NCBI GenBank assembly: GCA_964500345.1
Contig: CAZCNK010000003.1
Coordinates: 6,568 to 33,439 of the forward strand
Origin: Candidatus Woesearchaeota archaeon
GTDB lineage: Archaea; Nanobdellota; Nanobdellia; SCGC-AAA011-G17; UBA489
Length of the DNA: 26,872 nucleotides
Reading direction: 5' to 3'
Shown: positions 1 through 26,047 of the stretch, one piece after another
How positions within the stretch are numbered: position 1 is the first letter of the stretch
How the letters are laid out: every line of letters begins with the position of its first letter
Notes under the pieces: generated by a model
The model's database searches: none
What the model saw: the letters and a program-made list of their open reading frames with translations, nothing else
Told to the model about the DNA's origin: nothing
Translations under genes and position numbers: made by a program

Positions 1-55
1 TATAAATCTAATCTTATTATAAATCTAATCTTATTATAAATCTAATCTTATTATA
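1..55. repeat. 17-bp perfect tandem repeat, (TATAAATCTAATCTTAT)x3 plus partial TATA; cut by the window edge
   Basis: Units at 1-17, 18-34 and 35-51 are identical with no spacers; overlaps the stop codon (51-53) of the minus-strand permease gene. Confidence 0.95.
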
Positions 56-1256
56 GCATATACAATATTACAGGAATTATTAATGAGGACATGAGGTGGT
101 TTTTGCTAATTCTTTTGAGAGTTGGGATTAAGCCGAGAAAAGTTGAGGTGAAAAGGACAAGCAGTCCATAAACTCCCGATATAAAGAAAACTAAAATGGA
201 GATAAAAGCAATGATAAAGAGGGAGATTTTTTTGTAATTTATTTTTGTGATTATCTTTGAGAAGATTTTTGCTATTTTTAATGTTAGAAAAGTTGCAAAG
301 AAAGAGGAGATTAAGGATACAGAGAAGAAGATTAGAAGATGAAGAGGGGTAATTTGATATAGGAGTTTTGAGATTGCAACTACTGAGCCATTTCTTGATT
401 TTTCTATAGTAAATAAAGTGATAAAGGAGATTATTGTTGAGACTATTGAGATTGAGGATGAGAGGATGAGAAATCTTTTTTTGGTGTTGATTTTTGTTAT
501 TGAGGTTGCGAGGACTGCTGCTTGAGAAGGGCCTATTGCTGGGAGGAATGAAAAGATTGAGCCGGTGATTGTTGAGAGAAAGATTGTGCTTATTGATTTT
601 TTGAATGAAATTTTTGGGAATGAGCTTTCTTGAGATGGAATGGAGAGATTTTGTAAAAAACTATGGAGGAGTATTGAAGTGCCAAAGAGGCCTGAAAGAA
701 GTGGGAGAAGAGGCTCTTTTAAATTTGGAAAATTTAATACAGCTAAGCCTAGAGAACCTGAGAGTAGAGTTGTGATGAGAGACCAGAATTTTGAATTTTT
801 TTCTCTTAGAATTAAGATTAAAGTTATTGCAATAAGGATGTAGGGAATTTTTGATTTTATTAATGGATAGACTGTTTTTATGAAGAGATATGCAGGATGT
901 GATAAAGAGACAATTAAGATTAGAGAAGAGAGGCAACTAAAGATGCTTAGGATTATTGCATGGTAGGCTTGGCCTTGCAAGAGTAGTTTATGGGCTGGTA
1001 ATGTAATTAGAAATGAATCTGAATCTGGAGCTCCTAGGTATGTTGAGGGAATGAAGTTTAGGAAGATGTGAGTAATTGACATTGAGATAATGATTATTGA
1101 GAGGAGTAATGGGGAGAATAGATCTAAGAGATATGAGGAGGTGACTATAATGAGGGAGGCAATTAGATTTATGTGAAGACCAGGAGTTAAACCTGTAATT
1201 GAGCCTAGTAAGGAGCCTAACAAGGTTGAGAGCAGAATTTTTATTAAGAGGATCAT
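51..1256 (-). CDS. Tripartite tricarboxylate transporter TctA / DUF112-family multi-pass membrane protein
   Basis: 401 aa, highly hydrophobic; N-terminal GSLLGSITGLTPGLHIN, FIPSTYLGAPD, a second repeat GSIFSFLPAIGPSQAA and RNG near the C-terminal half match the archaeal TctA-like pattern. Confidence 0.8.
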   Translation of the reverse strand: MILLIKILLSTLLGSLLGSITGLTPGLHINLIASLIIVTSSYLLDLFSPLLLSIIIISMSITHIFLNFIPSTYLGAPDSDSFLITLPAHKLLLQGQAYHAIILSIFSCLSSLILIVSLSHPAYLFIKTVYPLIKSKIPYILIAITLILILREKNSKFWSLITTLLSGSLGLAVLNFPNLKEPLLPLLSGLFGTSILLHSFLQNLSIPSQESSFPKISFKKSISTIFLSTITGSIFSFLPAIGPSQAAVLATSITKINTKKRFLILSSSISIVSTIISFITLFTIEKSRNGSVVAISKLLYQITPLHLLIFFSVSLISSFFATFLTLKIAKIFSKIITKINYKKISLFIIAFISILVFFISGVYGLLVLFTSTFLGLIPTLKRISKNHLMSSLIIPVILYML

Positions 1257-8590: not shown

Positions 8591-9349
8591 TTAAGATTTT
8601 ATTTCTCTGAAAAAGTAATAGAGGATTAGGATTATAATTGAGGCTAGTAGGGAGAAAACTATTGAGGCAAAGATGGGAAGGAAATATGAGAAGATTGCGA
8701 GGAGGGTGATTAGGAAAAAGGAGAAGATGTAAAGAAAGCGAGAGCCAAAAAAGATTGTCATTCCGTTGAGTTTTGGCAATGGGAGAATGTTGGAGATTGC
8801 TAATGAGAGATTTATAATGTAAAGAGATTCGAGATTGAGAAATTTTGAGAGCAATGCTATGATCATGCAGGTAATTATTGGGCAGAGGGCTATTACAGAA
8901 GATTCATATTCTGTGACTTCTGAGAATTTTTTTCCAATTCTATGTGGTTTAAAGGCTGAGATTTGAGTTTGAAGAACGGCAGAGAATGGAAGAGAGCCTT
9001 TTGAGAATAGAATTACTAGGATTGGGAGAATAATTCCTAAAGGAATTGTTTCATAAAGTTTTGGTTCTGGCTGTTTTGATTTTATATAACCTGATTCTCT
9101 GATGAGGAATCTTCTTGTGTACCAGACTCTGTACTCTGAGTTAGCTCTGTAAATAGAGGAGATTATTTTTTGGGAGAGAATAAAGATTAGTAAAGAGATA
9201 AATGAGAGGAGGGTTACGAAGAGATAATTTTGAAACCAAAGAGAGAGGATAAAAACTGGTCTTTTATCATCAAAACCAAATACAAATCCAAGGATAATAG
9301 AGGAGAGAAGTAAATGAAGCACCTCTTTTTTTGTAAAGGAGATTGACAT
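8591..9349 (-). CDS. Multi-pass membrane protein, degenerate site-2-protease (M50)-like
   Basis: 252 aa; SNILPLPKLNG aligns with the M50 NxxPxxxxDG motif but has N for D, and no HExxH is present. Confidence 0.6.
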   Translation of the reverse strand: MSISFTKKEVLHLLLSSIILGFVFGFDDKRPVFILSLWFQNYLFVTLLSFISLLIFILSQKIISSIYRANSEYRVWYTRRFLIRESGYIKSKQPEPKLYETIPLGIILPILVILFSKGSLPFSAVLQTQISAFKPHRIGKKFSEVTEYESSVIALCPIITCMIIALLSKFLNLESLYIINLSLAISNILPLPKLNGMTIFFGSRFLYIFSFFLITLLAIFSYFLPIFASIVFSLLASIIILILYYFFREIKS

Positions 9350-13413: not shown

Positions 13414-13514
13414 TTTCCTCTTTTTCCTTTAAATTTTAAGGGAAGATGGCTATAAAAGTTTTTGGTTTTTTATTTTTTAATATGAGAAAGTTTTTAAATT
13501 AAGAGTTGCTTTTA

Positions 13515-15782
13515 ATGAATATGAGCGGGGAAAAGATTGAGGTGTTGGTGGAGGGGAGCGAGCAGGTTTTGAGAGTAGATGCTAATTCTTGGAGTTACAG
13601 TCCTAGTATTGAGGATAGCGCTTTGGTTATGGGTTATGTGATTGATAAATTAGTTGAAATTCCCGGGGTTAGCAGGATTGTTTTTAATCAGAGAAGAAAT
13701 TTTATTTATGAGTATGATCAAGTAAAGATATTAGTTGAGATAGCGCAGATATATGGCCATTTGGTTAAGGGAAAGAAGATATTTAGCTTAATTGGATATG
13801 ATGAGGGGAGCGGAAGATTTTTTGGGGAAAAGATTGGTATTTTGCAGTATTTGATTTATAATTTGTTGAGAAATGATCCTATTGGATGCTATGTAGAGGT
13901 AAAGAGATTAGTAAGAGAAGAAAGAATAAGGTTAGAGAAGGAGGGAGATTTGAGATTAATAGATGCAAGAAAGGAGTATATTGCCTTATTGAGTTATATT
14001 TTTAATTTGTTGGATAGAGCTAGAATAATTTCTTTAGTTAAAGAAGAGTTAGATGGATATAAGGTTGGTGAGAGAGGTTTGTATAAAAATTTATTTAGGG
14101 CGGTTATAACTCCAGATTTTATTTTTACTAGAATAATGAGCAGCCCTCCTTTGGATGGGGAAGAGATAGAGGCTTATAGTTTTGGCAAGAGTGATGTTGT
14201 GATTTACAAATTACCAGGAGAGATTAAATTATTGTATCATCTAAATGTGCCAGAGTTTAAATTGGATGAGGATGAATATATGCTAGTGGAGTTGGCCAGG
14301 AATGTTTTGGCTGAGCATAAACCGAGAGAAGAGGAATTCTTGGATCCGAGCAGAATGAGAGATACAATATATAATATTGGAAGAGATCTGTTGAATGAGC
14401 TGGCTGAGAATAAAGGTATTCAATTAGCTTATAAAAGGGTTGAGGAATTAGCTGAGATTTTGGTAAGATATACAGTAGGTTTTGGTGTGATTGAGATTTT
14501 GTTGCAGGATGAGAAGGTTCAAGATTTGAATATTAATGCACCTATTGGGCAAACAAATATTTTTATTGTGCATCAAGATTATGGAGAGTGTGTTACTAAT
14601 ATTATTCCGAGTAGAGAAGATGGAGAGGGATGGGCTACTAAATTTAGGCTGTTGAGTGGGAGACCTTTGGATGAGGCTAATCCAATTTTAGATACTGAGT
14701 TGAGTGTAAGCGGCGGAAGAAGTAGAGTAGCAGTGATTATGAATCCTTTGAGCCCTAATGGATTGGCTTTTGCATTTAGAAGGCATAGGGATAAACCTTG
14801 GACTTTGCCTTTGTTTATTGAAAATAGAATGTTGACTCCTTTAGCAGCAGGATTGATAAGCTTTTTAGTTGATGGAGGGAGAAGCATTATTTTTTCTGGA
14901 ACTAGATCGAGCGGTAAGACAAGTTTGATGCAGGCTATGATGCTGGAGATAATGAGGAAGTATAGAATTTTAACTGTTGAAGACACGCTTGAAATAAGTC
15001 AGGAGTATTTTAGAAAATTAGGATATAACATATTACCAATGAAGGTTAGGAGTGCTTTGATGAGTGGGGGGACTGAACTTGCAGCTGAAGAGGGAATAAG
15101 AACTAGTTTGAGGATGGGAGATAGCAGTTTGATTGTTGGAGAGGTTAGATCAAATGAGGCGAGGGCTATGTTTGAGGCAATGAGAGTAGGAGCTTTGGCA
15201 AATGTTGTTGCCGGAACAATTCACGGAGCAAGTCCTTATGCTGTTTTTGACAGGGTTGTAAATGATTTGGGTGTTCCAAGGACTAGTTTTAAGGCTGTTG
15301 ATGTAATTGTGATTAGTAATCCTGTGAGAAGCGCAGATGGATTGAGAAGTTTTAGGAGAGTTTTACAGATTTCTGAGGTGAGGAAGCATTGGGAAGAGGA
15401 TCCTTTAAGAGAAAAGGGATTTATTGATTTGATGAATTATGATAGCAAGTTAGATTTGTTAAAAGAAACTGATGATTTGAAGAATGGAGAGAGTGATGTA
15501 TTAAAGGAGATTGCTGGCAATGTTAGGGAGTGGGCTGGAAATTGGGATGGTGTTTGGGAGAATATTTTATTAAGGGCAAGGATAAAAGAGAGCTTAGTTA
15601 ATTTTGCTAGAAAGAGCGGAAATAAATTTTTATTAGAGGCTGATTTTGTTGTTAAGAGCAATGATCTTTTCCATAGAATTAGTGAAAAGATAATGGAGGA
15701 GGTTGGGTATTTGGACAGCAAGATGATTTATAGAGATTGGGAAGATTGGTGCAAGAGAGAAATAAAGGAGAAGAAAATTTAA
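13515..15782 (+). CDS. Type II/IV secretion, VirB11/TadA/CpaF-family pilus assembly ATPase
   Basis: Walker A GTRSSGKTS, Asp box VEDTLE, Walker B IVGEVRS, His box GTIHG, AFAFRR; long N-terminal extension. Start may be 13515 or 13521 (the track's 13506 is TTG). Confidence 0.92.
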   Translation: MNMSGEKIEVLVEGSEQVLRVDANSWSYSPSIEDSALVMGYVIDKLVEIPGVSRIVFNQRRNFIYEYDQVKILVEIAQIYGHLVKGKKIFSLIGYDEGSGRFFGEKIGILQYLIYNLLRNDPIGCYVEVKRLVREERIRLEKEGDLRLIDARKEYIALLSYIFNLLDRARIISLVKEELDGYKVGERGLYKNLFRAVITPDFIFTRIMSSPPLDGEEIEAYSFGKSDVVIYKLPGEIKLLYHLNVPEFKLDEDEYMLVELARNVLAEHKPREEEFLDPSRMRDTIYNIGRDLLNELAENKGIQLAYKRVEELAEILVRYTVGFGVIEILLQDEKVQDLNINAPIGQTNIFIVHQDYGECVTNIIPSREDGEGWATKFRLLSGRPLDEANPILDTELSVSGGRSRVAVIMNPLSPNGLAFAFRRHRDKPWTLPLFIENRMLTPLAAGLISFLVDGGRSIIFSGTRSSGKTSLMQAMMLEIMRKYRILTVEDTLEISQEYFRKLGYNILPMKVRSALMSGGTELAAEEGIRTSLRMGDSSLIVGEVRSNEARAMFEAMRVGALANVVAGTIHGASPYAVFDRVVNDLGVPRTSFKAVDVIVISNPVRSADGLRSFRRVLQISEVRKHWEEDPLREKGFIDLMNYDSKLDLLKETDDLKNGESDVLKEIAGNVREWAGNWDGVWENILLRARIKESLVNFARKSGNKFLLEADFVVKSNDLFHRISEKIMEEVGYLDSKMIYRDWEDWCKREIKEKKI

Positions 15783-16641: not shown

Positions 16642-18768
16642 ATGGATGGAGATGTTAGGGAGATTTTAGAGAGATACAAGGGAAAATTGGAGGATGGTAG
16701 TTTAGATTTTGAGAGTAGTTCTATTGGCTCCAGGGGATCTGGTGTGATGAGCAGGGAGTATGATATATTCAGGAGAGAAATGCTGGAGAAGAGGGTTAGT
16801 AATTATGAAAAGTGGTGCAATGTTGCTGAGAGAATTTTGAGAGTAAGGGCAAGTGAGAAGGAAAGAGAGGGTTTATTAAAATCTATTGAGACTAGCCATT
16901 TAAATATAAGCCCTGAGGGTGCTACTAGTTTTGCTGCGCTTGTTTCTGTTTTAGTAATTTTATTTGGCATAATGATTGGAGTTTTGAGTTATGCTTTTGG
17001 AGAATTGTGGTTGATTACCCCTTTATTTTTTGTGTTGGCTGGGGCTGTGATGATAAAACCTTTGACGCATATTCCAAATTATATTGCAAATAGATGGAGA
17101 TTAGAGGCAAGCAATCAAATGGTTTTATGCATTTTGTATGTTGTAATGTACATGAGGCATACTTCTAATTTAGAACATGCAATTAGATTTGCTGGAGAGC
17201 ATATAGGAGGGGCTTTAAGTTTGGATTTGAAAAAGGTTTTTTGGAACGTGGAGACTGGAAAGTTTTTTTCTATTAAAGAGAGTTTGGATAATTATTTGGA
17301 GGGTTGGCGGGGGTGTAGTATGGAATTTATAGAAAGTTTTCATTTGATTGAGGGAAGCTTGTATGAGATAAATGAGAATAAGAGAGTAGAGATGCTGGAG
17401 AAATCTTTGCAAGTAATGTTAGAAGGAACTTATGAAAAGATGTTGCATTATGCTCATAATTTACAGAGCCCAATTACTGTTTTACATATGTTAGGGATTA
17501 TATTGCCTGTTTTGGGATTAGTTATTTTTCCTTTGATTGGAAGCTTTTTATCTGGATTGATAAAATGGTATCATTTAGCAATTCTTTATGATATTATTTT
17601 GCCTGTTTTTGTTTTTTTTATGGGAAATAATTTATTGAATAAGAGACCAACTGGATATGGAGAGAGTGATGTAAGAAGAGATATGAATGTTGAGGAATAT
17701 AAAGAGAATTTTTTTGGAGCGGATCCTAAATTTGCAGGGATTTTGATTGGGGCTTTGATAGTTATGATTGGGCTAGTCCCAATGTTTGTTTATTTTTTTG
17801 CTCCTGGGTTTGATTTTGAATTCTTTGGAGGGAAGTTTTTTGATTACAAGGATGGGAATGGGCCTTATGGCATTGGGGCATTGATGTTTAGCCTGTTAAT
17901 TCCTATTGGATTAGCAGTTGGATTTTTTATTAATTATTATTTTAAGACGAGAAAGTTAATTTTTGTTAGGAAAAGAACAGATAATTTGGAGAAAGAGTTT
18001 TCTGGTGCAATATTTCAATTGGGAAATAGGATTGGAGATGGTGTTCCGGCTGAGGTTGCTTTTGGAAGTGTTACTGAAAGCATGAGAGGAACTGAGGCAG
18101 GAGATTTTTTTTTTTTTTTTAATGAGAATATTAGGAGATTAGGGATGAGCATCAAAGAGGCTATATTTAATGAAAAGGTTGGGGCTATTTTGTATTTTCC
18201 CAGCAAGTTAATTGAGAGCAGCATGAAGGTTTTGGTTGAGAGCAGCAGAAAAGGGCCTGGAACTGTGAGCAGGAGTTTAATTACTATAAGTAATTATGTT
18301 GATAGAATAAGGCAGGTAAATGAGAGACTAAAGGATTTGATGGCTGAGGTTTTGAGTAGCATGACATCGCAGATTAATTTTTTAACTCCTGTAATCGCTG
18401 GAATTGTTGTTGGTGTTGGTAGTATGGTAGTTACAATTATTAATAAATTAGGAGAACAATTTTCTCAAGTAAGTGTGCAGGGTTTTGATGCTGGAGGAAT
18501 TGCAGGAATTGCCAAGATTTTGAGGATTGAAGATGTTATTCCAGGATTTCAATTTCAAAGCATAGTTGGGATTTATTTAGTTGAGATAACAATAATATTA
18601 ACTATATTGGCAACTGGAATTGAGAGGGGTGTTGATAGAGTAAGCAATAGAAATAAGATTGCTAAGAATTTAATTAGAGCAGTAGGATTATATGTGGTAA
18701 TTGCATTTGTTGGAATAATAGTATTCAACTTATTGGCTAATGCTGTTAGTTTTTCAGTAGCAAGTTAG
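16642..18768 (+). CDS. Pilus membrane platform protein, T2SSF family with two domains (TadB+TadC-like fusion)
   Basis: 708 aa; two cytoplasmic helical domains (LEASNQMV..ILYVVMYMR..SNLE.AI.FA; LEKEFSGAIFQLGNRIGDGVPAE.AF), each followed by TM helices; next core gene after the ATPase. Confidence 0.8.
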   Translation: MDGDVREILERYKGKLEDGSLDFESSSIGSRGSGVMSREYDIFRREMLEKRVSNYEKWCNVAERILRVRASEKEREGLLKSIETSHLNISPEGATSFAALVSVLVILFGIMIGVLSYAFGELWLITPLFFVLAGAVMIKPLTHIPNYIANRWRLEASNQMVLCILYVVMYMRHTSNLEHAIRFAGEHIGGALSLDLKKVFWNVETGKFFSIKESLDNYLEGWRGCSMEFIESFHLIEGSLYEINENKRVEMLEKSLQVMLEGTYEKMLHYAHNLQSPITVLHMLGIILPVLGLVIFPLIGSFLSGLIKWYHLAILYDIILPVFVFFMGNNLLNKRPTGYGESDVRRDMNVEEYKENFFGADPKFAGILIGALIVMIGLVPMFVYFFAPGFDFEFFGGKFFDYKDGNGPYGIGALMFSLLIPIGLAVGFFINYYFKTRKLIFVRKRTDNLEKEFSGAIFQLGNRIGDGVPAEVAFGSVTESMRGTEAGDFFFFFNENIRRLGMSIKEAIFNEKVGAILYFPSKLIESSMKVLVESSRKGPGTVSRSLITISNYVDRIRQVNERLKDLMAEVLSSMTSQINFLTPVIAGIVVGVGSMVVTIINKLGEQFSQVSVQGFDAGGIAGIAKILRIEDVIPGFQFQSIVGIYLVEITIILTILATGIERGVDRVSNRNKIAKNLIRAVGLYVVIAFVGIIVFNLLANAVSFSVAS
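18105..18120 (+). repeat. T16 homopolymer inside the platform gene
   Basis: GGA GAT TTT x5 AAT gives GDFFFFFN; the frame is intact. Confidence 0.9.
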
Positions 18769-18780
18769 AAATGTTTATAT

Positions 18781-19485
18781 ATGGAAATTGATTTTAAGAT
18801 GTTAGTAATTTTTAAAGAAAGAGGTAAAATGAGAGAATTTCACTGGTTGCATGTTGTAAGCTTGTTTCTTTTAATAATGGTGGCTGGTTTTTTAAGCCAG
18901 GGTAACCTAACTGGTGGGGCTTTTTACAGGGATTATGGAGATGGTTATGGTGCTGGTGGATTTAATTTTTTTGGATATGGTGGTTATGGAGGATTTGGAT
19001 ATTTTAATTTTAGTGAGATGTATTATCAATATGCCTCTTTGATAGATGCCGTGATTTTTTTAGTTATCTTCTTGAGTTTGGGTAAAAGTATTTTTGGAGA
19101 GCATTTTAAGGAGAGTAAGGGAGTTTACATTGGGATTGGATTATTTTTAACAATGAGTTTGTTGTTGTGGGAGGAAAGAACTGGCTTTTCTCTTGTCGAA
19201 AGATTTGGACCTTTTGTTTTTTTCATTTTTTTGATAGTTTTAATATTTTATGTTTTTAAGTGGATAAAAGAGGCTGGAGCGGGGGCTTTGTTTGCAGCTG
19301 CTGTTGCTTATTTGATATTTTTCTTTTTTGTTTCAAGTTGGATTCAGGATTATGATTTAATGGGATGGTTGCCAGATGTAACACAAGGAATGATGTGGTG
19401 GCTTTTAACTGTAAGCTGGATTTTGGCTTGGTTTGTGGCTATTGGAAGCTTGATTTACTGGGTATGGAGTAAATTAAGCGGATAA
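18781..19485 (+). CDS. Multi-pass membrane protein with a Gly/Tyr/Phe-rich low-complexity loop
   Basis: 234 aa; YRDYGDGYGAGGFNFFGYGGYGGFGYFNF after the first TM. An internal ATG (MREFHW) is an alternative start. Confidence 0.75.
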   Translation: MEIDFKMLVIFKERGKMREFHWLHVVSLFLLIMVAGFLSQGNLTGGAFYRDYGDGYGAGGFNFFGYGGYGGFGYFNFSEMYYQYASLIDAVIFLVIFLSLGKSIFGEHFKESKGVYIGIGLFLTMSLLLWEERTGFSLVERFGPFVFFIFLIVLIFYVFKWIKEAGAGALFAAAVAYLIFFFFVSSWIQDYDLMGWLPDVTQGMMWWLLTVSWILAWFVAIGSLIYWVWSKLSG

Positions 19486-19554: not shown

Positions 19555-19770
19555 GTGAGTAGATTGGAGGTAAGAATGAAAATAATGGTGACATTTGTTG
19601 GAATATTGACAATACTTGGAGGGTTATTGCCTTTTTTGGAGAAGATGAATTGGCTGCCTGAATCTGTGAAGTGGATTCCGACAAGTGGGCCTTGGTATCA
19701 GGCAATTATCATTGGTGTTGGGGTAATTGCTGTAATCTATGGAATAATGAAGAGTAGTAGTGAGCTATGA
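19555..19770 (+). CDS. Small two-TM membrane protein
   Basis: FVGILTILGGLLPFL and WYQAIIIGVGVIAVIYG helices; start GTG 19555 or a nearby downstream ATG. Confidence 0.75.
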   Translation: MSRLEVRMKIMVTFVGILTILGGLLPFLEKMNWLPESVKWIPTSGPWYQAIIIGVGVIAVIYGIMKSSSEL

Positions 19771-19874
19771 AGAAAGGAGAATTGGGTGTAATTTTGACTA
19801 TTGTAATCGTGATTGTATTTTTGTTTATCTTATTTTATATTGCAAGAAATGTCTTGGGTGATATACTTGGATAA
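19767..19874 (+). CDS. 35-aa pilin-like peptide with a class III signal peptide (not in the ORF track)
   Basis: MKKG|ELGVILTIVIVIVFLFILFYIARNVLGDILG*; ATGA overlap with the upstream stop (19767-19770). Confidence 0.7.
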   Translation: MKKGELGVILTIVIVIVFLFILFYIARNVLGDILG

Positions 19875-20583
19875 AAAAGGAGTTAGCATGGTAGTTGTTG
19901 GGGCCATAGTTATCTTAGTTGGAGCTATTGTGGTTTTTATTTTTTTAAATAATCTTAATCTTTTTGTCAGAGAGCAAAGCGAATTAGAGAAATGCAGGTT
20001 GAGTGTTTTAGCAAAATCGAAATCTAAACTGATTACGTTTGGAGCTGAGAGTGATGTTGAGCTGAAATGCAAGACTAAGATAGAGGAGATTAATGAGAGA
20101 GATAAAAAGATGGTTATGGGAATAATGGCTGAGAACATGAGGGAATGCTGGTGGAAATTTGGAGAGGGAAAGATTGATTTTTTGAGTGAATATGACTGGT
20201 TTGGGAGTGACTATAGATGTTTTATTTGCTCGAAGAAGATATTTAGAAATGATGTTGAGAGAATTACTCATGAGGATTTTGAGAGATTTTTAAGCACTAA
20301 GAAAATGGAGGGTAGTGATAAGGCTTATAAGAATTATTTTACTTGGGGTTCTAATAGAAATATTTATTCAGAGGGAAGTTATGATAAAGAATTTTCAACT
20401 AAAAATGGAGAGAGTGTTTATGCTGTATTTGTTGGGGCTAAGAAGACAATTCATCCAGAGAATGCTTGGTGGGGGGAGTATGTTGTAGCTGCTTTTGGGG
20501 GGGTTGCTTCGCCGCATTTTTTAAAATGGGTTTACGTTGTTAATGCTGAAGACATTAAGGAGAGGTGCGATACTTTAGAATGA
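19849..20583 (+). CDS. Pilin-like / surface protein with a class III-like signal and Cys-containing ectodomain
   Basis: DKKG|VSMVVVGAIVILVGAIVVFIFL, then CRLSV, CKT, RECWWKFGEG and CFIC. Start is uncertain: ATG 19849 keeps KKG, while ATG 19888 follows AAGGAG. Confidence 0.75.
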   Translation: MSWVIYLDKKGVSMVVVGAIVILVGAIVVFIFLNNLNLFVREQSELEKCRLSVLAKSKSKLITFGAESDVELKCKTKIEEINERDKKMVMGIMAENMRECWWKFGEGKIDFLSEYDWFGSDYRCFICSKKIFRNDVERITHEDFERFLSTKKMEGSDKAYKNYFTWGSNRNIYSEGSYDKEFSTKNGESVYAVFVGAKKTIHPENAWWGEYVVAAFGGVASPHFLKWVYVVNAEDIKERCDTLE

Positions 20584-20771
20584 AATTTAGAAAGAAAATT
20601 TTAAAGAAAGATTTTGTGAAGTTTTTTAGGAAAGGGGCAATGGAGTTTGAGGAAATTGGGAGATGGGTGATTGCAGTAGTTTTATTAGTTGTTTTAGTTG
20701 GGATTATAATTGTATTAAGCAAGAAGTATCCTTTAATTTTGGAGAAATTGAAATGGGTCTTGAGGCGATGA
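20580..20771 (+). CDS. Short pilin (class III signal peptide, Glu at +5)
   Basis: RKG|AMEFEEIGRWVIAVVLLVVLVGIIIVL; 44-aa predicted mature form; ATGA overlap with the upstream gene at 20580-20583. Confidence 0.8.
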   Translation: MKFRKKILKKDFVKFFRKGAMEFEEIGRWVIAVVLLVVLVGIIIVLSKKYPLILEKLKWVLRR

Positions 20772-20923
20772 GAATAAATTTTAGAAAGAGAGGATTTATG
20801 GAGTTTGAGAAGATAGTTGGATTAGTTATTGTTTTATTAATCATCATATTTAGCATTTTTGTTATACTAAAGATAACTGTTTTAAGAGATATTTTTTTGA
20901 AATTGTTTAATATTTTAAAATAG
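20768..20923 (+). CDS. Short pilin, paralog of the previous gene
   Basis: MRINFRKRG|FMEFEKIVGLVIVLLIIIFSIFVIL; 42-aa predicted mature form; ATGA overlap at 20768-20771 (track start 20663 overlaps the previous gene). Confidence 0.8.
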   Translation: MRINFRKRGFMEFEKIVGLVIVLLIIIFSIFVILKITVLRDIFLKLFNILK

Positions 20924-20952: not shown

Positions 20953-22362
20953 ATGATTATGAAAAAAGGGGTTGGACATATCTGGTGGGTCATAATTGTT
21001 GCTGTATTAGCTGTAATGGTTCTTCTTTTTTCTGGTGGGTCTTTATATGGTATGGGAAGAAAGGCTTTAGATGTAACTAATAAAATTTTAGGAGGGGCTG
21101 AAAAGAGTGCAGAGGAGCTAAGTAATTTGGGGTTAAGTGATTTGACAGAAAAGGATGTTAAGATGTTAGAAGAGCAAGATAGGGTTGATGTAATCTTGGC
21201 TAATGCGCTTAGAGAGGCAGATGAGTATTATTCTAATAAGGATTATGAAAAGGCTTTAGAGTTTTATAAAAAATTTTTAGAGTTGTGTGAGAGATATGAA
21301 AGAGATTGCAGGCCAGCAGATAAAAAGCATGTTGATGATAGAATTAAGGATGTTGAAAATAAATTGAGGGAGATTGAGTTAAAGAGGATTAGTGAAGAGG
21401 CTAATCCTGGTAAGAAGATTGAGGCTTTAAGTGCATTTATTGGGAAAGTTCCTGATGGAAAAATAAAAAGTCAGGCGGAATTTTTGTTGGAGGAAGAGAA
21501 GAAAATAACAGAAGAATTGGAGAGTATTGATAAAGAGATTTTAAATAATTATGAAGAAGGGAGAAGGTTATTAGCTTCTGGTTTACCTAGACAAGCCGTT
21601 GAAAAATTTAAGGAATCAAGATTTTTGGCAGAGACTGGAGATTCGGAAGGTGATCTAGTAAATAGGTATCTCTTTTTATCTAATGTTGGTCTTGTTAGGA
21701 GTTATATTATTGTTGAGGATTGTGAAAATGGAAGGGCAGCAGCTTGGGAGCTAGATTCTATTTATAGGGCAGGGAAAGTTATTGCTTTTAATGATGCAAA
21801 GGATTTGTTTCTGGGTGGTGTGTATGATGTAGCAAATTGCTTTTATCAGAGAAGTGGAAAAAGGACAGAGGCATCAAAGTCAAGAGCTGATTATTTAGCT
21901 ACTTTAGATTTTGTTTATTCTATAGATAGGTATTATACTGGATTAATCAGTAGAGATAAAATTCCTAAGTTAGTTGAGATTTATGAGAATGTTGCTTATA
22001 ACTTAGCAGATCCTGCTGATTGTGAGTCAAGGGAAAGTATTGGTGATTGCCATAAAGAAAGTAGCACAATAAGTATTATGACTTCAGAAGGACTAAAGGA
22101 ATTTAATTTTGCTGTAACTAAAGAGATTGTTAAAAAATATCCTTATCTAGGATGTTGGTGGGAATTTAGAACGACTAATTATTGTAATTATTGTGATGTG
22201 AGCATTGCAGCTAGCAAGGGATATCCAGCAATTACTTCATGTTATGATTATTACCATCTTTTTAAAGGAGGGGCTAATGAGATAGTTTGTAAGACAGATC
22301 CTTGTGGATTGGGTTGTAGGTTTGTTGATAACTGGGGGCCTAATTCATGTGAAAAAATTTAA
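20953..22362 (+). CDS. Large pilin-like protein: class III-like signal, TPR-like helices, Cys-rich C-terminus
   Basis: MKKG|VGHIWWVIIVAVLAVMVLLF; ADEYYSNKDYEKALEFYKKFLEL and YEEGRRLLASGLPRQAVEKFKES look TPR-like; terminal CWW...CNYC...CYDY...CKTDPCGLGC. Confidence 0.75.
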   Translation: MIMKKGVGHIWWVIIVAVLAVMVLLFSGGSLYGMGRKALDVTNKILGGAEKSAEELSNLGLSDLTEKDVKMLEEQDRVDVILANALREADEYYSNKDYEKALEFYKKFLELCERYERDCRPADKKHVDDRIKDVENKLREIELKRISEEANPGKKIEALSAFIGKVPDGKIKSQAEFLLEEEKKITEELESIDKEILNNYEEGRRLLASGLPRQAVEKFKESRFLAETGDSEGDLVNRYLFLSNVGLVRSYIIVEDCENGRAAAWELDSIYRAGKVIAFNDAKDLFLGGVYDVANCFYQRSGKRTEASKSRADYLATLDFVYSIDRYYTGLISRDKIPKLVEIYENVAYNLADPADCESRESIGDCHKESSTISIMTSEGLKEFNFAVTKEIVKKYPYLGCWWEFRTTNYCNYCDVSIAASKGYPAITSCYDYYHLFKGGANEIVCKTDPCGLGCRFVDNWGPNSCEKI

Positions 22363-22443: not shown

Positions 22444-22839
22444 ATGAAGATGGATTTTAAGAAAAGAGGACAAGGATTGCCTTTAACAACTATTATAATT
22501 GCGATATTAGTTGTTGTTGTTTTAGTTGTTTTAGTTGCTTTTTTCTTGGGAGGAACAACAAGCATAACAAGAGGGATAAAGAGCTTGTTTTTTGGAACTA
22601 CTGCTGGAACTGATTTAACAATTGCTGTTGAGACTTGCAGAAATAGATGTGATCAGGCTCAGACTTTGCCGAGTGATACTTTAAAGAGAAATTCTGCTTA
22701 TTGCAAGACACCTTTCCATATGGATTATGATAAGGATGGAGAAGTGGACGTTGGAGATAATGGAGAGCCAATTGAGTTTTATTGCTGGGATGATAGACTA
22801 ATGGGAAGTACCGGATGTGCTGATGTTAGTTGTAAATAA
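22444..22839 (+). CDS. Archaeal type IV pilin (major pilin candidate)
   Basis: KKRG|QGLPLTTIIIAILVVVVLVVLVAFF; own TTTATAAA box about 25 nt upstream; six Cys and a DYDKDGEVD motif in the head. Confidence 0.85.
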   Translation: MKMDFKKRGQGLPLTTIIIAILVVVVLVVLVAFFLGGTTSITRGIKSLFFGTTAGTDLTIAVETCRNRCDQAQTLPSDTLKRNSAYCKTPFHMDYDKDGEVDVGDNGEPIEFYCWDDRLMGSTGCADVSCK

Positions 22840-22907: not shown

Positions 22908-23363
22908 TTAACAATCTGTGATTGCTTCCTGCAGTTTGCCCATTGCAGAGTTCAAGTCAGTAATATACTTTTTCTGGTCATTAATTGCTTGCTCTACATC
23001 AGAAACAAATTTGCCATCTTCTCTAGCAAATTCTAAATCTACTTCGAGACCCTCTAAATCTTTTTCTGCTTCTGAGATTGCATTTGCTTGTGATTGTATT
23101 TCTTTTCTTGTGGAGTCTATATTATCACAGGCATTTTCTATAGAAATGGGGAATGATTGTGCTTCTTCATCACTTGCTTTACTTGTTATTTCTTTTTCAT
23201 ATGAATCAGTTGACGGAGTTTTCATTGCAAACTTTAAAATTAGAAATCCTGCAATTATTATAACCAGCAAAATTATCCATATGAATTTCTTACTTTTTGG
23301 CTTATTTTTTGGCTTTATGGTGCTCTTTCTTTTTTTATTTTCTTTTTTTATTTTCTTTGTCAT
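22908..23363 (-). CDS. Membrane-anchored coiled-coil protein
   Basis: Lys-rich N-terminus, one TM (FIWIILLVIIIAGFLIL), acidic heptads; starts 2 nt after the 893-aa gene's stop with AGGAG upstream. Confidence 0.75.
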   Translation of the reverse strand: MTKKIKKENKKRKSTIKPKNKPKSKKFIWIILLVIIIAGFLILKFAMKTPSTDSYEKEITSKASDEEAQSFPISIENACDNIDSTRKEIQSQANAISEAEKDLEGLEVDLEFAREDGKFVSDVEQAINDQKKYITDLNSAMGKLQEAITDC

Positions 23364-23365
23364 TC

Positions 23366-26047
23366 TTATCTCCTTGATTTAACACATGCTCCTTCAGAGC
23401 AGTAACCTCCTTCGCAAAATCTTGAATAGACTCTCATTTGATTACCGATGCATACTTTTTCACTTACGAATTCGCCTTGGCTATAGCATACATCTTCAAC
23501 TGTAACAACTGATTTTGAGGTTTCATCGTAGAAGGTTACTTTTCCAAGCGTGTAAATGTCTACTCCATCAGAATCTTGACAAAATGGCTCTGTTTTTAGT
23601 GCACCTTCTATACAGGCTCCGTCTGAACACCTTGTTCCTGGTGGGCAAGAAACTTTTCTTGACATGAAAGTATTAAGCTTGCAAATGCCTTCATTGACAT
23701 TGGATTCTCCGTCACATGAGTCTGTAAATGTATTTTGTTTGCCTTCTTTATCAGTGTATTTAACTGTTCCTTTTGTTTTTCTTTCCTTTGCGTCAGAATC
23801 TGAACATGACTCTTTGGATTTAACACATGCACCATTTAGACATACTTCATCACCACTGCACTTGAGAATTTTGGTTCTGCCTTGGTTTATGGTGTTACAA
23901 ACTGATTCTTCAACGAATCTGTAGCCTATACATGTATCTTCTATTGTTTTTGAAGATCCTTTTTCATCTGTATATGCAACTGTGCTCTTGGAGTTCTTAT
24001 TTTCACCGTCTTGGTCTGTACATTTGGTTGAAGTTTGTTTGCAAGCGCCATTGCTGCAAATATAACCTGCAGGGCATCTTCTTCTGCAGTTTTCCTGATT
24101 CTCACAGGCAAATTTACCATCTTGAGTACATAAGCCTTCAAGAACACCTACTAATCCTATGCAACTATCTGTAAATGTGTTTGTTTTACCGTCTGGAGTT
24201 AGGTATGTTACTATACCTGCTTGGTTTATATTATCTCCATCTGGATCTTCACAGGTTGATTTTGGTTTACACACATTGCCTTCATCTATTTCAGAATTGC
24301 AATTATTATCTATTTTGTCGCATATTTCAATTGCAGAAGGATTTACATTTGCTAGCTTGTCATTGCAATCAAGATTATTATCTACGTAACCTTCTGGTTT
24401 TGCTGGTGCAGATTTCTGAGCTTGTGGATTACCATAACTATCTTTATCGAGATCTTCATAGAATATGGCTCCTCTTTCTTTTAATTGATATGTACACCTC
24501 GATAATTTTGCTGCTGCATCTAAATTTGAGTACTTCCCATTTATGAATTGATTTTCACCATAAGTGTAATCTGGGCAGTTCCTGTCAATGCAGCGAGGGT
24601 CATAAATATCTTTGCATTCTTTTATTATCCATGTAGCAGAATCTTTAGTTCTTGATACTGGGTTGGTTGCTAGATAAGTTTTTAGGATGGGATTTTCGAT
24701 TACTAAAATAGCACCAAGGCCCATAGCACCTGAACCTGCAGGATAACCTGTTGTTTGTGTCCATAAATAACTAACTTCGTGGTTTGGTTCTCCAGAGTCT
24801 ACTTTACCTAGTTTAAATATCCCATTAAATATATCTCCATAATACAAAGGAATCTGGATTGATTCACCTTCTTTCAAGGTTACTGTTAGACCTTCTTTAA
24901 GTGTAGGGGTTTCTTCTGGAGAGCATGCACCGTCTTTGCACCCTTTTCTACACTCAATATTTTTTAAAGCAACTATCTTTTTTCCTTGATAGTCTATGCA
25001 TATGTTTTCTGTTACGTAATTCTCATTTAGGCAAGTGTCTGTAACTGTTTTTAATGTGCTGTCAAAGATGCCTTTTGTAGTTCCTTTTACAAATCTATTA
25101 TCTCCATCTGGGTCTTCACAAATTACTTCTTGACTTGGTTTCTGCTGTTCTCCTGTGTCAATTAGTTTGTAAGCGCATTGCCTTTGTTTAGACTGAGGCC
25201 ATGTTAAAAGCTTGCCCTCAACATATTTTTTGTTATTATAACTAAAGTCTTTACATCCATCAAAGCAATTAGGGTCATCAGTATTTTTACACTCTTTTAC
25301 TTTGAAAGTCACTGTTTCTCCTTCTCTGTCTACAGGAACGATTAAAAAGGTAGCTCCTTGCAATTGCCACCAATCATTTATAACTATATGCCCTAGACTT
25401 ACGAGACCGTAAGTGATGTATTCTTCATTAGACTTTCTTAATTCATATCGAATATAGTTTCCTGGAGGTCCATAGTCAGCATCAGTAAGTTTTAGTATAA
25501 AGCCGCCTATAGGCCATAACTTAAGAGGGACTTTTGTTGATTCTCCTTTTTTTAGCTTAAATATCATTTCTTTTGCCGGTTCTGGAACTGGCTCTGATGG
25601 CGGGGCTGTTGTTGTGGATGGGGAAGTAGGTGGTTCCTTTGATTCAGGGGATGGTTCGCATTTGTTTGTGTTGAAATTGCAAATAGAATTTTCATCACAG
25701 TCTTCTTGCTCAAGACATTCTACACATTTTTTTAGAGATAGATCGCATCTTTTTTGGCAATCTTTGTCAGATGAACATTCTCCTTTTTGTATGCACCTTC
25801 CAGTGTTTATGTCGCATGTTCCACTAGAGCAATCAGAATCAGCTAAACAACCCAGTTTGCATGAACCAGACTCGCATATATATCCTGTGCCACAATCAGC
25901 ATCTTGATTGCAGCTAACTGCGAGACCAGCAAGAAAATGTAAGCCATATTTGCTCTTATAGTTTTCTATATTTGTTGATGTGCATCCAGAAAGAACAAAT
26001 AAAAATAGAACACCCAGTAAAGCAAAATAAATTACCTCTTTTTTCAT
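23366..26047 (-). CDS. Large Cys-rich repeat surface (lipo)protein
   Basis: Signal peptide ending LSGC (lipobox-like); four CxxDxDC modules; Pro/Thr/Ser linker; two ~140-aa homologous domains; a MopE-like repeat (DLDKDSYGN...DCND...P.AIEICD.IDNNC...IDEG); five C.D.D(G)...G.V...D.C...E..C...C..GAC repeats. Confidence 0.9.
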   Translation of the reverse strand: MKKEVIYFALLGVLFLFVLSGCTSTNIENYKSKYGLHFLAGLAVSCNQDADCGTGYICESGSCKLGCLADSDCSSGTCDINTGRCIQKGECSSDKDCQKRCDLSLKKCVECLEQEDCDENSICNFNTNKCEPSPESKEPPTSPSTTTAPPSEPVPEPAKEMIFKLKKGESTKVPLKLWPIGGFILKLTDADYGPPGNYIRYELRKSNEEYITYGLVSLGHIVINDWWQLQGATFLIVPVDREGETVTFKVKECKNTDDPNCFDGCKDFSYNNKKYVEGKLLTWPQSKQRQCAYKLIDTGEQQKPSQEVICEDPDGDNRFVKGTTKGIFDSTLKTVTDTCLNENYVTENICIDYQGKKIVALKNIECRKGCKDGACSPEETPTLKEGLTVTLKEGESIQIPLYYGDIFNGIFKLGKVDSGEPNHEVSYLWTQTTGYPAGSGAMGLGAILVIENPILKTYLATNPVSRTKDSATWIIKECKDIYDPRCIDRNCPDYTYGENQFINGKYSNLDAAAKLSRCTYQLKERGAIFYEDLDKDSYGNPQAQKSAPAKPEGYVDNNLDCNDKLANVNPSAIEICDKIDNNCNSEIDEGNVCKPKSTCEDPDGDNINQAGIVTYLTPDGKTNTFTDSCIGLVGVLEGLCTQDGKFACENQENCRRRCPAGYICSNGACKQTSTKCTDQDGENKNSKSTVAYTDEKGSSKTIEDTCIGYRFVEESVCNTINQGRTKILKCSGDEVCLNGACVKSKESCSDSDAKERKTKGTVKYTDKEGKQNTFTDSCDGESNVNEGICKLNTFMSRKVSCPPGTRCSDGACIEGALKTEPFCQDSDGVDIYTLGKVTFYDETSKSVVTVEDVCYSQGEFVSEKVCIGNQMRVYSRFCEGGYCSEGACVKSRR

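Follow-up and report, generated by a model that had tools for sequence, protein, structure and literature searches.

The stretch of DNA analysed here, referred to as the window (26,872 nucleotides; C3:6568-33439 of a 1.1-Mb Woesearchaeota genome that is 87% complete), has a G+C content of 33% and occurs in four groundwater metagenome runs; none of the runs listed is RNA. Its forward strand carries a row of membrane protein and pilin-like genes (Table 1), among them an open frame of 35 codons, here called p35, which lies between an upstream neighbour, p64, and a downstream neighbour, p231. The genes of a secretion ATPase and of a candidate platform protein lie on the same strand as p35 and within 6 kb of it. 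Six consecutive genes, namely p35 and the five that follow it, encode products starting with [KR][KR]G and continuing with a hydrophobic helix. The genome also encodes, on another contig, an A24 prepilin peptidase (PF01478 above the cut-off at G000:C36:9789-10130, 288-aa ORF). Because of this combination of a T2SSE ATPase, a GspF-like platform, six genes with [KR][KR]G starts and an A24 peptidase, the locus is, judged from its gene content, type IV filament-like. Such a pilus-like locus is near-universal in Woesearchaeota-type (Nanoarchaeia) DPANN archaea.

Table 1. Genes and features of the pilus-like locus, in positions of the window
Feature	Position	Strand	Description
Secretion ATPase, T2SSE / FlaI / TadA-like	13506-15782	+	Pfam PF00437 T2SSE, E 1e-13; NCBIfam FlaI and TadA matches below cut-offs
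708-aa polytopic membrane protein, probably platform (GspF/TadC/FlaJ-like)	16642-18768	+	50-67% identity across the order; detected in 37 of the 41 relatives
234-aa Gly/Tyr-rich multi-pass membrane protein	18781-19485	+	Retained behind the platform gene; most orthologous loci give a tblastn match
p64, 64-aa two-helix membrane protein	19576-19770	+	GGAGGT 4 nt 5' of ATG 19576
p35 mini gene	19767-19874	+	MKKG leader-like start, one transmembrane helix, 9-residue tail; read from the sequence
MKKG codons of p35, candidate class III leader	19767-19778	+	Predicted cut after Gly4; read from the sequence
p231 family gene	19849-20583	+	DKKG leader, N-terminal helix, cysteine-bearing head; family traced by HMM to 44 loci
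Mini pilin-like gene, 63 aa from ATG 20580	20580-20771	+	Motif RKG-AMEFEE; ATGA overlap with p231
Mini pilin-like gene, 51 aa from ATG 20768	20768-20923	+	Motif KRG-FMEFEK; ATGA overlap with the preceding mini gene
469-aa protein, MKKG-type leader	20953-22362	+	TPR-like stretch (weak TPR matches below cut-off), Cys-rich C-terminus; orthologues found
131-aa candidate major pilin	22444-22839	+	KRG-QGLPLTT start, then a long hydrophobic helix; family conserved at almost every locus

Several components of the locus stand apart from named families. The 708-aa protein gave no Pfam T2SSF match even at E 10 and no sequence match in the PDB, and its assignment as a GspF-like platform is offered as a lead, drawn from ESM Atlas look-alikes: its nearest clusters either bear the name GspF-domain protein or include PF00482 in 16-21% of their members. 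The 234-aa membrane protein matched no family in Pfam or NCBIfam, and look-ups of the pilin-like neighbours of p35 in these two collections returned no family. The family of p64, likewise without a family match, is recognisable by a conserved GGLLPFL...IPTSG..YQ pattern and in many loci lies just before the mini gene, the two overlapping in an ATGA. Scans of the whole window for Rfam families and tRNAs gave no matches.

Further observations concern the surroundings of the locus. Two minus-strand genes (151 and 893 aa; 22908-26047) interrupt the forward-strand row of pilin-like genes, while in relatives further pilin-like genes directly follow the major pilin; over this interval the GC skew of the forward strand is about -0.1, against +0.5 around it. 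The forward strand is strongly C-poor over the whole window, positions 1-26872 (A.304, C.104, G.230, T.362). GC skew amounts to +0.4 to +0.7 in forward-strand genes and about +0.2 in most minus-strand ORFs, with values of +0.55 and +0.46 in ORFs 51-1256(-) and 8591-9349(-), a pattern that points either to a strand-wide bias atop a gene-strand bias or to a wrong strand call for these two ORFs.

The p35 open frame

The frame runs from an ATG at 19767 to a TAA at 19872-19874. Its in-frame extension upstream of the ATG comprises a single codon, and ATG 19767 is therefore the earliest possible start. The product begins with MKKGE, continues with 21 residues that include no K, R, D, E, Q, N, H or P and form its sole transmembrane segment, and ends in a nine-residue tail, RNVLGDILG. 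At its 5' end the start codon of p35 overlaps the TGA stop of p64 in an ATGA. At its 3' end the last 26 nucleotides are shared with the frame of the next gene, provided that p231 starts at ATG 19849. The stretch AAAAAAGGAG at 19873-19882 follows, with a GGAG located 5 nt 5' of a later candidate start, ATG 19888. A first, sequence-only reading of this DNA had described the start, the hydrophobic helix, the translational coupling to the upstream gene through an ATGA overlap, the 26-nt overlap and the GGAG near ATG 19888, and each of these points is correct in the sequence. The same reading regarded p35 as hidden and missed by the ORF track, which holds for the track available to that reader and fails for public gene calls, where the exact 35-aa product is present, nameless, on a Logan contig and on the NCBI contig. 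p35 is thus an unnamed gene, not an unseen one.

Conservation and selection

The p231 family, defined by an iterated HMM, was used to compare loci taken from 36 related genomes and, in addition, from 26 contigs of genomes or metagenomes. A hydrophobic ATG-initiated ORF of 25-50 aa, ending at or overlapping the start of p231, was found in 43 of the 44 loci that carry a p231 gene, in 35 distinct sequences, and a mini ORF also precedes a p231-type gene in approximately 19 of 23 further loci of other families and orders. Dinucleotide shuffles, scored for ORFs with an ATG start, at least 25 codons and hydrophobic content, lead one to expect 0.07 such ORFs over the 35 orthologous segments together, or about 0.002 per locus; the real segments contained one in 35 of 35 cases, and the reverse strand of the same 35 segments contained none. 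The alignment of the p35 family is nearly gapless, and what is conserved across orders is a hydrophobic helix of some 20 residues with its flanking charges.

The closest relative is only 67% identical to the window in the platform protein, so that synonymous sites are saturated against the window itself, and for this reason selection was estimated in another clade of the p35 family. In the close trio L041/L066/L080, dN/dS of the mini gene is 0.08-0.13 (about 0.1), and third codon positions account for 7 of 9, 6 of 9 and 5 of 8 differences in the three pairs (binomial P 0.002). A search of metagenome contigs for p231 found no close relatives in the window's own lineage, and with the platform protein as query the matches there did not exceed 61% identity, the best genome match being the 67% already mentioned. 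When the family profile was run against 1.84 billion representative proteins, only ten clusters were matched at E <= 0.001; all ten matches are full-length, 34-42 aa, similarly built, and none is named.

Comparison of orthologous loci and measurement of dN/dS had been proposed as the means of deciding whether p35 is a gene, and on both counts the proposal is borne out: the frame is conserved in the orthologous loci, and purifying selection is evident in the L041/L066/L080 trio. Taken together, these comparisons show that p35 is a real, conserved and presumably translated gene for a predicted single-pass membrane peptide, and that its family is, by codon statistics, under purifying selection where this is measurable. 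Part of the conservation of the tail may nevertheless belong to the other frame, since the tail is encoded where p35 and the p231 leader overlap.

Gene order and the pairing with p231

Across loci the mini gene tracks p231 and not p64. In G001, G008 and G014 a major pilin gene stands between p64 and the mini gene, which still adjoins p231, and in several other families the mini gene lies directly 3' of the platform gene while still abutting p231. Where p231 is tandemly duplicated, the mini ORF is placed before the first copy. The stop of the mini gene and the start of p231 repeatedly overlap, by 4-26 nt. In L024, L044, L047, L048 and L067 the gene immediately 5' of the mini gene is a p64 orthologue, which overlaps it by 4 nt as in the window. 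As p35 is tied to the start of p231 and, in the window, to the stop of p64, the three products are probably made in a fixed ratio. From this gene order we infer a partner role of p35 with p231.

Architecture and start of p231

The p231 family was present in 273 of 301 genomes sampled across the phylum (about 90%). Its members share invariant cysteines (C49, C74 and C240) and a nearly invariant G11 and C124, the leader glycine being among the nearly invariant residues. An AlphaFold2 model of the window's protein (pLDDT 82) has an N-terminal helix of 53 residues (11-63) and an alpha/beta head, and p231 thus has, as modelled, the lollipop architecture of a pilin, with a long N-terminal helix plus a head. 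The fold of the head matched nothing in the PDB: the best Foldseek hit there had an E value of 3.6, and a wide VIA-align search gave Z below 5, with the helix only aligned. No Pfam or NCBIfam family matched p231 either. The idea that p35 is a frameshifted N-terminus of p231 was rejected, p231 having its own leader and helix.

Public gene calls place the start of p231 at ATG 19888, which would remove the DKKG leader. In relatives the leader is often reachable only via a GTG or TTG start inside the mini ORF. Because the leader glycine is nearly invariant and orthologues often need a GTG or TTG to include the leader, p231 most likely starts at ATG 19849, or at a GTG or TTG shortly after, rather than at 19888; with such a longer start the overlap with p35 would be real. 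The KKG codons of p231 had been read as serving mainly as a ribosome-binding site for ATG 19888, a view that is probably wrong given the conservation of the leader in the family.

The leader motif and likeness to pilins

In class III signals a short leader carries K or R at -2 and G or A at -1, and the M-K-K-G start of p35 has this form. The predicted mature product would begin with E-L-G-V-I, placing Glu at +1. The predicted leader of four residues falls within the range of PibD, which cuts leaders of 3-4 residues, while FlaK requires 5 (PMC4307647); the leader would suit an A24 enzyme of PibD type and be too short for one of FlaK type.

The motif is not a constant feature of the family. A [KR][GA] pair within the first nine residues occurs in 28 of 52 distinct mini orthologues and is absent from 24, and no hidden motif was found in the in-frame upstream extensions of the leaderless orthologues. 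On the tree of the platform protein the leader state has changed at least 7 times, with at least 5 of these changes forced by well-supported branches. The window's own well-supported clade has kept the motif in 6 of 7 members. About 30 of 35 p231 copies keep their leader. The earlier suggestion of a KKG cleavage motif therefore holds, as a sequence feature, for the window and most of its clade, and does not extend to the family, in which at least 5-7 gains or losses separate the 28 bearers from the rest. Cleavage cannot be essential for the function of the mini family, since the motif is missing in 24 of 52 orthologues and its state has changed at least 5-7 times.

Among the 28 leader-bearing mini proteins, approximately 20 have an acidic residue within +1 to +5, and in most the residue right after the leader glycine is acidic or Gln. 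The leaderless proteins begin a few residues before the helix, 10-11 of the 24 starting with ME or MD near the predicted mature N-terminus of the others. The functional unit would on this evidence be the helix with its acidic N-terminus, and the leader an optional addition. Residues following the helix are basic in both groups (mean +1.3), whereas those preceding it in leaderless members are neutral or acidic; under the positive-inside rule, this distribution of charge suggests a topology opposite to that of a pilin. Longer leader-bearing mini proteins, however, have basic tails as well.

Loss of the leader was also seen in the longer mini family of the RKG-AMEFEE type, in one genus (L031, L032, L035, L036 and L043), whose leaderless proteins start ME.E.LGK, near the point where the leader-bearing forms are predicted to begin when mature. 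In the window itself, the mini genes at 20580-20771 and 20768-20923 both encode an internal Met-Glu-Phe-Glu straight after the putative cut site.

Searches of Pfam and NCBIfam with p35 (E up to 0.1) returned no family and no pilin model (Class_IIIsignal/DUF361, N_methyl or Flp_Fap). HMMs seeded on the mini families of 43-63 aa collect members of the p35 family and leave out the equally hydrophobic p64 family. The likeness so detected is carried largely by the transmembrane helix and could have a compositional origin. The identification of p35 as a pilin is accordingly upheld in part: the class III-type start, the A24 peptidase, the pilus locus and the profile link to the longer mini families argue for it, while the variable motif and the lack of a match to those pilin models argue against it.

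Comparison with known systems

The closest parallels within the locus are the mini genes at 20580-20771 and 20768-20923, which share with p35 an operon, a [KR][KR]G start, a single helix and a short basic tail, and iterated HMMs join the three families. The families of these two differ from p35 in length (43-63 aa), in a longer amphipathic basic tail and in a leader kept in most lineages, whereas p35 is shorter than either and is the one linked to the p231 start.

Flp pilins of bacterial Flp/Tad (type IVc) systems carry a G/XXXXEY processing motif and measure approximately 40-60 residues when mature. They resemble p35 in being very short, with little more than one helix, and in the presence of several paralogues beside a TadA-like ATPase and a TadC-like platform. 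p35, in contrast, has no E-Y after Gly4 and no Flp_Fap match, and is shorter and archaeal.

Single-helix accessory subunits such as KdpF, CydX and AcrZ, of approximately 30-50 aa, are encoded by genes that overlap or adjoin those of their partners. These proteins have no sequence relation to p35, no prepilin-type start and no place in pilus loci, and serve as an analogy of mechanism only.

A further comparison is offered by the Epd system of Methanococcus maripaludis, with its major pilin MMP1685/EpdE and the small EppA substrates MMP0528, MMP0903 and MMP1283 (PMC3875500, PMC13705601). Like p35, these pilins are archaeal, have a class III-type leader that ends in Gly and a single hydrophobic N-terminal helix with no head, and are accompanied by larger pilin-like proteins. 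Epd proteins measure 67-76 aa, with leaders of 5-13 residues, and their mature forms of 54-63 residues are the shortest of the characterised archaeal pilins (PMC3875500); the Epd-type motif has Gln at +1 and Glu at +5 after the cut site (PMC4371748, PMC3875500). p35 differs in its 35 aa (31 mature), four-residue leader, Glu at +1, lack of a +5 Glu and lack of a Class_IIIsignal/DUF361 match. About half of its orthologues are without any leader, and some have Gln at +1.

Discussion

The best explanation of these observations, and one that we consider moderately probable, is that p35 is a pilin-derived partner of p231, a low-copy accessory and not the main filament subunit. p35 would be the shortest of a set of "headless" pilin-like mini proteins encoded in the type IV pilus-like locus. 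In the window's lineage MKKG would act as a class III leader, cut after Gly4 by the A24 peptidase to release a 31-residue peptide beginning with Glu. The helix of this peptide would pair with the long N-terminal helix of p231, either before assembly, while still in the membrane, or within a small complex that initiates the filament or forms its tip. p35 would be an accessory or minor subunit of low copy number and would not build the shaft, for which the 131-aa product of 22444-22839 is the better candidate. In leaderless lineages translation would start near the predicted mature N-terminus, often with Met-Glu, and for that reason the mature helix and not the leader would carry the function. 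Cleavage, topology, contact with p231 and role are all inferred.

The rival that survives best, clearly less probable than the pairing just outlined, holds that p35 is not a pilin but an uncleaved membrane subunit that stabilises or regulates the platform or the membrane-stored p231, much as KdpF, CydX or AcrZ do for their complexes, its KKG acting as a positive-inside signal only. A leader motif that about half of the lineages can dispense with is in keeping with this idea, as are the absence of a pilin model match and a basic residue after the helix that is more constant than the leader; a length of 25-41 aa is generally typical of accessory peptides. Such a subunit would not, however, account for the recurrence of [KR][GA] followed by an acidic residue or Gln in lineages of several orders, in a form that matches the leaders of the neighbouring genes, nor for the tendency of leaderless forms to start at the would-be mature start or for the HMM link to leader-bearing mini proteins.

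p35 could instead be a true structural pilin, from which MKKG is removed and whose 31-residue helix is polymerised by the ATPase and platform into the filament core, as the shaft or a regular minor subunit; it would then be the shortest pilin known. The class III-type start, the Glu at +1, the long hydrophobic helix, the setting in a pilus locus, the A24 peptidase in the genome and the profile similarity to the longer mini families are all as one would expect of a pilin, and headless pilins exist, the major pilin of M. maripaludis being 62 aa when mature (PMC3875500). Repeated loss of the leader, in 24 of 52 orthologues, is unexpected if processing must precede assembly, however, and 31 residues give no surface beyond the membrane helix. 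The 131-aa pilin with its fully conserved leader is better suited to the shaft, and a gene coupled to that of one particular minor pilin suggests a product acting as a 1:1 partner, not as a bulk subunit. We consider this reading improbable.

Far less probable still is a regulatory upstream ORF, whose translation would only bring ribosomes to the overlapping start of p231 while the peptide itself has no function. As this reading would have it, the overlap of the mini-gene stop with the p231 start is conserved, and the start of p231 is often a weak GTG or TTG located within the mini ORF. Purifying selection acts on the amino-acid sequence, however, and different orders have kept both the helix and the charges that flank it, none of which a coupling device would require. 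A chance open frame in AT-rich DNA, for which one might cite the mere 35 codons and the fact that T-rich DNA gives hydrophobic codons in any frame, is refuted by the presence of the frame in nearly all loci against about 0.002 per locus in shuffles, by the empty reverse strand and by variation concentrated in third positions, and its probability is negligible.

In a recent census of archaeal type IV filaments, loci of this kind were poorly captured in DPANN, and the pilin genes of Woesearchaeota-type members were detected only as scattered components (PMC13705601). Woesearchaeota-type DPANN are uncultivated and probably host-dependent, and the pilus-like locus is among their few candidate attachment tools. 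That locus holds a conserved unnamed gene of 25-41 aa which is locked to one minor pilin gene; added here are the finding that the mini gene is paired class-wide with a single family of minor pilins, the observation that evolution can dispense with its leader, and a measure of the selection acting on it, together with a correction of the likely start of p231. The mini gene thereby offers a handle on two questions, namely the function of a minimal pilin-like unit and the need for leader cleavage.

If p35 is only an accessory membrane subunit, the result is an improvement of annotation of modest reach. A bolder proposal, to which we give a low probability, is that p35 is a genuine filament or initiation-complex subunit, reduced to a core helix of 31 residues and half as large as the shortest pilins yet characterised, and that its leaderless orthologues are "pre-matured" pilins made without a peptidase step. 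Were these orthologues indeed pre-matured pilins, the leader and its removal would not be obligatory for the assembly of type IV filaments.
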